Below are positions 46,576 through 47,425 of a stretch of DNA of 47,425 bases, piece by piece. Below the pieces are notes generated by a model. That model did no database searches. It had not been told where the DNA came from and saw only the letters and a list, made by a program, of their open reading frames with translations. Within the stretch, counting starts at the first letter, position 1. Each line of letters opens with the position of its first letter. A program made the translations under genes and the position numbers. This DNA comes from Candidatus Doudnabacteria bacterium (GTDB taxonomy: Bacteria; Patescibacteriota; Doudnabacteria; UBA920; O2-02-FULL-48-8), in the NCBI GenBank assembly GCA_016186915.1, contig JACPKU010000001.1, positions 1 through 47,425 of the forward strand, read 5' to 3'.

Positions 46576-47425
46576 TCTTTTGAAGAGTTTGATCCTGGCT
46601 CAGGATGAACGCTGGCGGCGTGCCTAAGACATGCAAGTCGTACGTGCCGATGCTTCGCATCGGAATTTGCAAGTTTCAGTTTTCAATTTTCAAATAATTT
46701 TCAAGCATCAATTTTCAATTGAAAATTGGCTCATTGATCATTAATTGTAAATTGATTATTGTTAATTGAAAATTCCAGTGCGGAGCACTGGTAACGTGGC
46801 GAACGGGTGAGTAACGCGTGGGAACTTTCGTTAAGTTCAGAATAACCCTCCGAAAGGAGAGCTAATACTGGATGTTGAGGAAACTCAAAAGGAGCAATCC
46901 GCTTAACGTGAGGCCCGCGTCCCATCAGCTAGTTGGTAAGGTAAAGGCTTACCAAGGCTACGACGGGTAGGGGGCCCGAGAGGGTGATCCCCCACACTGG
47001 GACTGCGACACGGCCCAGACTCCTACGGGAGGCAGCAGTTAGGAATATTGGACAATGGGCGAAAGCCTGATCCAGCGACGCCGCGTGCACGAAGAAGGCC
47101 TTCGGGTTGTAAAGTGCTTTTGTTGGGGAACAATTTCTGAGCGTACCCAACGAATAAGAGGTTGCTAACTCTGTGCCAGCAGCAGCGGTAATACAGAGAC
47201 CTCAAGCGTTATCCGGAATCATTGGGCGTAAAGCGTACCGATAGGTGGTTTAGTGAGTCTTAGGTAAAAGCCCGAAGCTCAACTTCGGAGTTTGCTTAAG
47301 ATACTGCTAGACTAGAGGGGCAAAGAGGTAACTGGAACGAACGGTGTAGTAGTGAAATGCGTTGATATCGTTCGGAACACCGAAAGCGAAGGCAGGTTAC
47401 TGGGTGCCTCCTGACACTGCTAGGA
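46576..47425 (+). rRNA. 16S ribosomal RNA, 5' part (runs off the window)
   Basis: TTGAAGAGTTTGATCCTGGCTCAG, ACTCCTACGGGAGGCAGCAG, GTGCCAGCAGCAGCGGTAATAC and ATTGGGCGTAAAG occur in the expected order. The 5' end is placed by analogy to E. coli. Confidence 0.95.
46662..46776 (+). other. ~115-nt AT-rich insertion in the 16S V1/helix-6 region
   Basis: About 150 nt lie between GCAAGTCGTACG and TGGCGAACGGGTGAGTAA, versus about 35 nt in E. coli. The insert is bracketed by GGAATTT...AAATTCC and contains the 18-nt palindrome AATTTTCAATTGAAAATT. Confidence 0.8.

Follow-up and report, generated by a model that had tools for sequence, protein, structure and literature searches.

The window analysed here, by which we mean the whole stretch of 47,425 nucleotides (nt), is the entire contig C6 of the genome of an ultra-small bacterium, a member of the Doudnabacteria within the Candidate Phyla Radiation (G000; 728 kb in 7 contigs, 46% G+C), and it ends within a 16S rRNA gene whose helix 6 (h6) carries an insert that we refer to as a cassette. 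Alignment to an Rfam covariance model, the check that a first-pass annotation of the window had itself proposed for a suspected V1/helix-6 insertion, confirmed this insertion, as 128 nt (46656-46783) fall where RF00177 has a 3-nt helix-6 loop. The helix-6 tip is enlarged by about 125-140 nt, whereby the complete inserted unit comprises 145 nt (46647-46791) with a G+C content of 23% compared to 46% genome-wide. The bounds suggested before, 46662-46776, were right in so far as GGAATTT (46662-46668) and AAATTCC (46770-46776) are present there; the true unit is larger, and a conserved GC mini-hairpin on either side of the core had been overlooked. The insert of G000 has all the parts by which we define a cassette, that is a 5' mini-hairpin with a UUC loop, a palindromic core, and a 3' mini-hairpin with a GRA loop, located at a hairpin tip of a stable RNA. 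Its features are as follows.

46577-47425, forward strand: 5' half of the 16S rRNA gene, truncated by the contig end (Rfam SSU_rRNA_bacteria RF00177, 647.9 bits, model positions 1-753)
46640-46646, forward strand: 5' strand of the helix-6 base stem, GUACGUG, which pairs with 46792-46800 in the fold
46647-46663, forward strand: left clamp (X), a perfect 7-bp mini-hairpin CCGAUGC-UUC-GCAUCGG in the sequence; the motif opens 22 cassettes in stable RNA genes
46664-46774, forward strand: AT-rich palindromic core of 111 nt, AATTTGCAAG...TTGAAAATT, with both end points shared by copies in other genomes
46691-46714, forward strand: 24-nt segment CAAATAATTTTCAAGCATCAATTT, which includes the family word TCAAGCATCAA and matches the reverse complement of 45457-45480 at 21 of 24 positions
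46709-46728, forward strand: apex of the core hairpin, a perfect palindrome around TTTTCAATTGAAAA (20/20 self-complementary BLAST match; apical stem-loop in the fold)
46775-46791, forward strand: right clamp (Y), a perfect 7-bp mini-hairpin CCAGUGC-GGA-GCACUGG in the sequence, with stem covariation in the 22 cassettes
46792-46800, forward strand: 3' strand of the helix-6 base stem, UAACGUGGC, seen in the fold and in the comparison with the relative G023

The arms of the core are built of heptamers of the TTTTCAA/TTGAAAA type. Folding of 46636-46806 gives -64.4 kcal/mol (z=-8.0), whereby none of 200 shuffles was equally stable, and the minimum free energy (MFE) structure of the nearest-neighbour model is a single long rod in which X is paired with Y. 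The Rfam scan of the window yielded above threshold only the SSU rRNA and three tRNAs, and no intron or ribozyme family. The insert sits about 630 nt inward from the contig end. No further piece of a 16S rRNA gene and no 23S rRNA gene were found in the G000 assembly, which is 97% complete by tool estimate, and the rRNA region evidently broke this assembly. No other canonical clamp is present in the G000 genome.

Helix 6 was compared in 27 relatives, for which its length was taken as the distance between the anchors CATGCAAGTCG and ACGGGTGAGTAA. Five of the 27 carry an insert at this position, and the remaining 22 have 21-37 nt, 16 of them with a minimal hairpin such as AGUGGGUUUAGACCCACGGCGA. 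In G006 and G007, helix 6 measures 143-144 nt, with clamps and helix-6 base as in G000 but a different AT-rich core, and the base stem of G006 shows a compensatory change (AUGU/ACAU vs ACGU/ACGU). In G012 there are 145 nt with variant clamps and a core of ACACGAA words. G058 has 454 nt, and its insert (L019, G058:C19, 1119-1466) encodes a 115-amino-acid (aa) protein of the family PF05635 (23S_rRNA_IVP, E=2e-19). The closest 16S rRNA gene is that of G023, which shows 99.6% identity across the 231 nt after helix 6 and a syntenic nusA-clpP region upstream (~76% identity). G023 is the sister of G000 (support 99/94), and of the two only G000 has the cassette. Between the same helix-6 base flanks as in G000, G023 has the ordinary tip CUUUGACC-GCAA-GGUUGGAG; thus, the 145-nt cassette replaces a tip of roughly 20 nt. 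The presence of the cassette is patchy even among sister lineages, and it must have been gained or lost at least two or three times to give the distribution seen. A metagenome scan with the helix-6 base plus the left clamp yielded the G007 type of 16S rRNA gene twice, identical in two contigs, as well as one unrelated match, and no new cores. Two more 16S insertions were seen in relatives. G022 (L007, G022:C1, ~9765-10075) has about 310 extra nt at the position of helix 10, where G028 carries a cassette. The 16S rRNA gene of G045 (L083, G045:C12, reverse strand, ~720-1720) is interrupted a second time near position 515, by about 1 kb in which a separate clamp cassette (CCAATGC-TTC-GCATTGG ... 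CCACTGC-TAAAA-GCAGTGG) and a masked stretch of N are found.

The relatives were also searched with the 5' half of the 16S rRNA gene as query, in which the core corresponds to positions 88-198 (window 46664-46774). The best relative of the core is a non-rRNA locus, G012:C13:3110-3220, with 87% identity over 111 nt (97/111 positions identical), and the other G012 copies, on C4 (85%) and C1 (82%), have the same end points as the 16S core. Further matches at non-rRNA loci were obtained in G012, G023, G055, G034, G037, G058, G028, and G008. At E<=1e-8, matches occur order-wide in 22 of 146 genomes and 19 of 67 genera, with the same two end positions. The copies are located between long open frames, and at 18 of the 20 copy loci that were scanned there is no Rfam RNA gene. 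Against shuffles that preserve the heptamer words, the core scores z=14-20 with the G012 copies, which speaks for colinear homology and not for shared low complexity. As far as sequence comparison goes, the 16S core is homologous to an intergenic palindromic repeat family of related Doudnabacteria, and we consider it very probable that the insert is a cassette of the kind defined above with a core of repeat origin.

Two properties of MITEs, the miniature transposable elements with inverted repeats, were found in this family, namely dispersed copies with common ends, whereby G000 has only 2-4 copies, and terminal inverted repeats, with the consensus ends AATTTTCAATT...AATTGAAAATT in an entirely palindromic element. 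RNAalifold did not yield a consensus structure for 17 family copies, as their arms are put out of register by indels. Clamp-bounded units of 151-500 nt with cargo were not found in the class, the sole match being an unrelated tRNA locus. Two further readings were rejected. A scan of IMG/VR for a viral vector gave one GC-rich chance match to the clamp pattern and none to the core, and the clamps do not resemble the subterminal hairpins of IS200/IS605-like elements, as a conserved target tetranucleotide is missing on the 5' side of the left clamp, and the two clamps are copies of each other in inverted and not in direct orientation.

The first-pass annotation had linked the insert to two intergenic palindromes of the same window, termed family-1.

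45369-45508, no strand assigned: family-1 intergenic palindrome in the nusA-clpP spacer, a weak relative of the core (nhmmer E=0.25; z=5.3)
34461-34599, no strand assigned: second family-1 intergenic palindrome, which has only the word TCAAGCATCAA in common with the core (no profile match; z=3.1)

The described match of 46691-46714 at 21 of 24 positions is real, whereby its partner is the reverse complement of 45457-45480 and not of 45458-45481, which was off by one. It extends to 36 nt at 81% identity (45453-45488 with 46683-46718) and is the second-longest inverted pair that the repeat search yielded in the window. The word TCAAGCATCAA is also present in the 34461-34599 copy, as had been stated. 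This 11-mer occurs five times in the genome compared to 0.35 expected occurrences, every time within an AT-rich palindrome, and it is conserved in the G012 copies. Shuffling upheld the view that the similarity exceeds low-complexity chance, although the match is weak. For the insert against the whole window, the best ungapped score was 38 compared to 28.4 +/- 2.8 in dinucleotide shuffles, with 3 of 300 shuffles reaching 38. With shuffles that preserve the heptamer words, the core gave z=5.3 against 45369-45508 alone (0/500) and z=3.1 against 34461-34599 (5/500). An nhmmer profile built from foreign copies alone matched the 16S core (E=9e-19), C4:314733-314830 (E=5e-12), C1:7608-7697 (E=0.003), and 45409-45502 (E=0.25) in G000, with no match to 34461-34599. 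The idea that the insert is a copy of a dispersed repeat therefore holds in the sense that the core is a member of a class of dispersed palindromes which elsewhere fill the spacers between genes, but the family-1 loci do not hold up as its source, since the best relatives (82-87%, z=14-20) are intergenic copies in another genus. Within G000, C4:314733-314830 comes closest to the core. The link of the core to family-1 is thus real but distant. The 34461-34599 palindrome is itself centred on a GC hairpin, CCTGCC-GGCG-AGGCAGG (34500-34530), which is unlike the 16S core and resembles a terminator placed within an AT-rich palindrome.

The clamps were used as a search key in the form ATGCTTCGCAT-N(60-150)-TGCGRAGCA. 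Within the class, this pattern was found in 6 of 146 genomes, with all matches in rRNA genes, and the reversed control gave 0 matches. The hosts are helix 6 of the 16S rRNA (G000, G006, G007, G045), the helix-10 position of the 16S rRNA (G028), and the 23S rRNA (G034), where the cassette forms the tip of helix 25. A scan of the GTDB species genomes yielded 47 loci compared to about 8 expected by our own estimate, and about 20 of the 47 are clamp-core-clamp units with AT-rich or word-repeat cores from Patescibacteria, including Terrybacteria and Kazan. By Rfam, the hosts of these units are 23S rRNA (8 loci), helix 6 of the 16S rRNA (L118), and RNase P RNA (L101, L102, L108, and L115, the latter at 97 bits). 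In L102 the cassette is the tip of P12 of the RNase P RNA, and in a Terrybacteria 23S rRNA a cassette occupies the helix-9 position, with the start of a second one with the same left clamp at helix 25. Judged by these alignments, the clamp-core-clamp layout recurs across Patescibacteria with differing cores at peripheral hairpin tips, namely those of 16S rRNA (h6, h10), 23S rRNA (h9, h25), and RNase P RNA (P12). The Kazan locus L115 (QMNG01000003.1, 4536-5352) holds two near-identical clamp cassettes 363 nt apart, one within the diverged RNase P RNA, which scores slightly below the Rfam cut-off, and the other at its 5' edge.

Dispersed copies were also found for the cores of four of the five other rRNA cassettes that were examined. 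The core of G007 has 92-94% copies at G007:C12 and C5 and further copies in G006, G001, G012, and G009. The core of G034 belongs to the same TTTTCAATT family, that of G028 has 72-75% matches at three loci of its own genome, and that of G045 has an 85% match in G058. For the G012 cassette core no dispersed copy was found. Another clamp cassette of G012 (L036/L084, G012:C7:40986-41068), which has a TTTTCAATT-family core, precedes the 5' end of the 23S rRNA gene by about 85 nt. The leader or spacer upstream of the 23S rRNA is the usual place of RNase III processing stems.

Covariation was scored on the 22 cassettes at those pairs which the search pattern leaves free. The Y pair 4-14 is C-G in 12, G-C in 8, and U-A in 1 of them, the Y pair 3-15 is A-U in 13, G-C in 6, and U-A in 1, and for the X pair 3-15 the counts are 11 A-U and 10 G-C. 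Of the pairs required by the long rod, X4-Y14 is mismatched in 22/22 and X14-Y4 in 13/22 cassettes. Thus, the local hairpins are what is selected, either as RNA or as single-stranded DNA, and the long rod can be rejected as the sole structure, even though it is still the computed MFE. Seen along the host-sense strand, UUC is invariably the loop of the 5' mini-hairpin and GRA that of the 3' one. Three cassettes have GAA loops and an exchange of the two clamp types, which we read as insertion in the opposite orientation; this would point to an event at the DNA level. Of 18 cassettes hosted by stable RNAs, 17 have a sense fold that is more stable than the antisense one (mean -9.1 kcal/mol, Wilcoxon p=4e-5), and for the cores alone this applies to 14 of 18 (-5.5 kcal/mol, p=0.004). 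The core of G000 reaches -25.7 kcal/mol in sense and -19.1 kcal/mol in antisense direction. G.U pairs are more numerous in the sense strand. In terms of these modelled folds, the advantage of the sense strand would fit selection on the fold of the transcript.

The insert had been suggested to be removed from the mature rRNA by RNase III, and the respective gene was confirmed within the window.

31585-32238, forward strand: rnc, RNase III gene (228 aa), candidate processing enzyme (TIGR02191, 243.3 bits compared to a cut-off of 166.25, E=6e-73)

Our preferred interpretation, which we hold with somewhat more than even confidence, is that 46647-46791 is an rRNA intervening sequence (IVS) without an open reading frame (ORF), built from a mobile or exchangeable palindromic repeat. 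Membership in the IVS class taken by itself is probable. As an extended stem-loop, the insert takes the place of a peripheral helix tip (128 nt at the h6 loop, z=-8, ordinary tip in the sister), it is sporadic among close relatives (5 of 27, and absent from the sister G023), and its site is shared with the PF05635 ORF in helix 6 of G058, whereby sibling cassettes occupy h25 and h9 of the 23S rRNA, the sites of classical IVSs. For the actual excision of the cassette we see about an even chance. In Coxiella, the IVS is excised by RNase III (PMC4990558), and the hairpins of Correia elements are targets of this enzyme (PMC10969869). Short ORF-less rRNA insertions of the Candidate Phyla Radiation (CPR) are considered uncharacterised and possibly RNase III-type IVSs (PMC11270868), and the same article, citing Brown et al. 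2015, relates that CPR rRNA insertions are absent from transcripts. IVSs of the 16S rRNA are known in Clostridium paradoxum, as cited in PMC4859166. In this interpretation, the course of events would begin with a DNA-level event without target-site duplication that brought the cassette, or at least its core, to the helix-6 tip, for which recombination or copying among palindromic repeats that share AATTT...AAATT ends is a candidate route. After transcription, the long duplex would be cut by RNase III and the cassette discarded. The resulting 16S rRNA would consist of a 5' piece of about 70 nt and the remainder, held together in the subunit like classical fragmented rRNAs.

Several observations weigh against this interpretation. 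A target-site duplication is not visible at the rRNA or the intergenic copies, whereby the AT-rich ends could blur duplications of 1-2 nt, and the helix-6 flanks form a stem and not a direct repeat (G006: AUGU/ACAU). No mobilising enzyme turned up, though no transposase-directed search was made. G000 has a single other clear copy of the core family, C4:314733-314830, and identities of 70-77% between family members may in part be due to heptamer words that they have in common. The cassettes of the clamp set were collected by means of a pattern that fixes the loop and the inner stem, and forced local X and Y hairpins give -54.0 kcal/mol, about 10 kcal/mol worse than the rod. The sense-strand excess of G.U pairs could stem from a transcription-linked C>T bias rather than from selection. 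Finally, four hosts are RNase P RNAs, with the P12 tip in L102, which fits retention as well as excision. We know of no natural fragmentation of RNase P RNA.

The main rival explanation is that the mature 16S rRNA keeps the cassette as an expansion segment, i.e. as an extension of the helix-6 spur by about 55 bp that is tolerated or used, for example as a platform for protein binding, and that the cassette extends 23S rRNA helices or P12 of RNase P RNA elsewhere. This is possible, yet clearly less probable to us than an IVS. The tip is solvent-exposed and length-variable, the clamps are kept across phyla as a binding site would be, and the advantage of the sense-strand fold fits a structure that persists. 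In RNase P RNA, staying is the simpler reading, and large helix extensions of CPR RNase P RNAs are on record (PMC8172020). On the other hand, a long near-perfect duplex is a natural substrate of RNase III, which is encoded in the genome, and cassettes occupy the exact 23S rRNA sites at which IVSs are excised in studied bacteria. The free exchange of the core among relatives is contrary to a sequence-specific role, and the reported lack of CPR rRNA insertions in transcripts mentioned above likewise speaks against retention.

Three other explanations carry far less weight. The core might have arisen in place by slippage of TTTTCAA/TTGAAAA heptamers, so that its likeness to intergenic palindromes would reflect common words and no transfer; the heptamer periodicity of the repeat family, the many cross-genome matches of just 70-77%, and the lack of a visible target-site duplication would agree with this. 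It is nevertheless strongly disfavoured and very improbable given the 97/111 identity with G012:C13, which includes matching end points and non-periodic stretches, and the z=14-20 against heptamer-keeping shuffles. The ordinary tip of the sister G023 also argues against it, as do G006 and G007, which have the same clamps around another core that is itself copied at 92-94% elsewhere in G007. Mis-assembly at a repeat could have joined an AT-rich core into the 16S contig, and it is true that the gene lies at a contig end and that the rest of the rRNA operon is absent from the bin. However, such an artefact is hardly credible for an insert well within the contig whose junctions both lie exactly at perfect clamp hairpins, whose architecture recurs in the independent assemblies G006, G007, G045, G028, and G034, and whose G007 version is identical in two separate metagenome contigs. 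The slightest chance of all falls to a self-splicing intron or an element bounded by ribozymes, whose splicing would include ligation. CPR rRNA genes often harbour group I and II introns (PMC11270868), but no such family was found in the window by Rfam, 145 nt would not accommodate the core of a group I or II intron, the fold is a plain rod or a junction of three hairpins, and the site is a hairpin tip and not a conserved single-stranded position.

Classical IVSs of the 23S rRNA are found in helix 25/45 of Salmonella, Campylobacter, Leptospira, and Coxiella and in helix 9 of Rhizobiales, and 16S IVSs occur in Helicobacter, Campylobacter, and Caedibacter as well. The cassette resembles them as an AT-rich extended stem-loop at the tip of a peripheral helix, in its sporadic occurrence, in the use of the 23S sites h25 and h9, in the S23p-type IVP ORF at the same helix-6 site of G058, and in the presence of an RNase III gene. 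It differs from them in that its core is demonstrably copied from an intergenic repeat family and in that the cassette also occurs in RNase P RNA, whereby excision is here proposed by analogy. To our knowledge, paired conserved GC mini-hairpin clamps have not been described as a feature of IVSs. With less than 200 bp, no ORF, and no intron model, the insert is also like the short uncharacterised CPR insertions (Brown et al. 2015; Tsurumaki et al. 2024, PMC11270868). The full text of this survey does not contain "repeat" or "palindrom", and the link to a repeat, the clamps, and the RNase P RNA hosts are additions of the present analysis. A review of prokaryotic MITEs makes no mention of rRNA hosts.

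Rickettsia palindromic elements (RPEs) are likewise small palindromes, about 100-150 bp long and dispersed, which lie within functional genes at surface positions that tolerate them; they are described chiefly in protein-coding genes, whereas the host is a stable RNA here. Neisseria Correia elements are small dispersed palindromes as well, whose transcribed hairpins are cut by RNase III (PMC10969869), but they have a TA duplication and defined terminal inverted repeats, whereas no duplication is seen at the cassettes and the ends are self-folding mini-hairpins. The arms of the TTTTCAA/TTGAAAA type recall heptamer-repeat inverted arrays, i.e. intergenic palindromes with a period of 7 bases, from which the core differs by its colinearity across genera beyond word content and by the conserved non-repetitive clamps that frame it. 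A more far-reaching reading, to which we give less than even odds, would be that the clamp-core-clamp unit is a distinct, undescribed class of structure-defined elements that is specialised for hairpin tips of stable RNA genes (16S, 23S, RNase P RNA) across the CPR. In such an element, the covarying mini-hairpins might be recognition sites of a dedicated processing or mobility enzyme, and the AT-rich core an exchangeable payload drawn from, and perhaps seeding, intergenic palindromic repeats. If this is true, it would give a concrete origin for bacterial rRNA IVSs.

Short ORF-less insertions are common in CPR rRNA genes and reported as uncharacterised (PMC11270868), and one of them has now been traced to an intergenic palindromic repeat. 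The origin of bacterial IVSs is a long-standing question, which becomes testable by the repeat link. The conserved clamps are a simple search key that revealed the same cassette in RNase P RNA, and cassettes in this host may explain some "diverged" CPR RNase P RNAs. The roughly 125 nt that are added to V1 matter for amplicon surveys, rRNA-based detection, and CPR ribosome models, and so would the fragmented 16S rRNA that the organism of G000 would have if excision is true.

Some further elements were noted in the course of the scans. In a Patescibacteria metagenome-assembled genome (MAG), two tRNA genes are called within the Rfam-aligned 5' part of a 23S rRNA gene (L126, 3354-3518). A conserved element of about 120 nt occurs in eight ruminant-gut Clostridia MAGs (L113, L116, L120, L128, L130, L141, L143, L144); it begins with CCGATGCTTCGCATCG, contains GTCATCCTGAGCGAGCGAAGCGAG, and ends with CTGCGRAGCAG, with no Rfam host in the two loci that were scanned. 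The G000 genome itself has at least 16 copies of double mini-hairpins of about 30 nt (TCCGCC-NNN-GGCGGA twice, back to back), three of them in the window (14541-14570, 36871-36900, and 44477-44506) and at least 13 more on C2, C4, C5, and C7. Their layout of two adjacent triloop hairpins is that of the 16S clamps with the core taken out.

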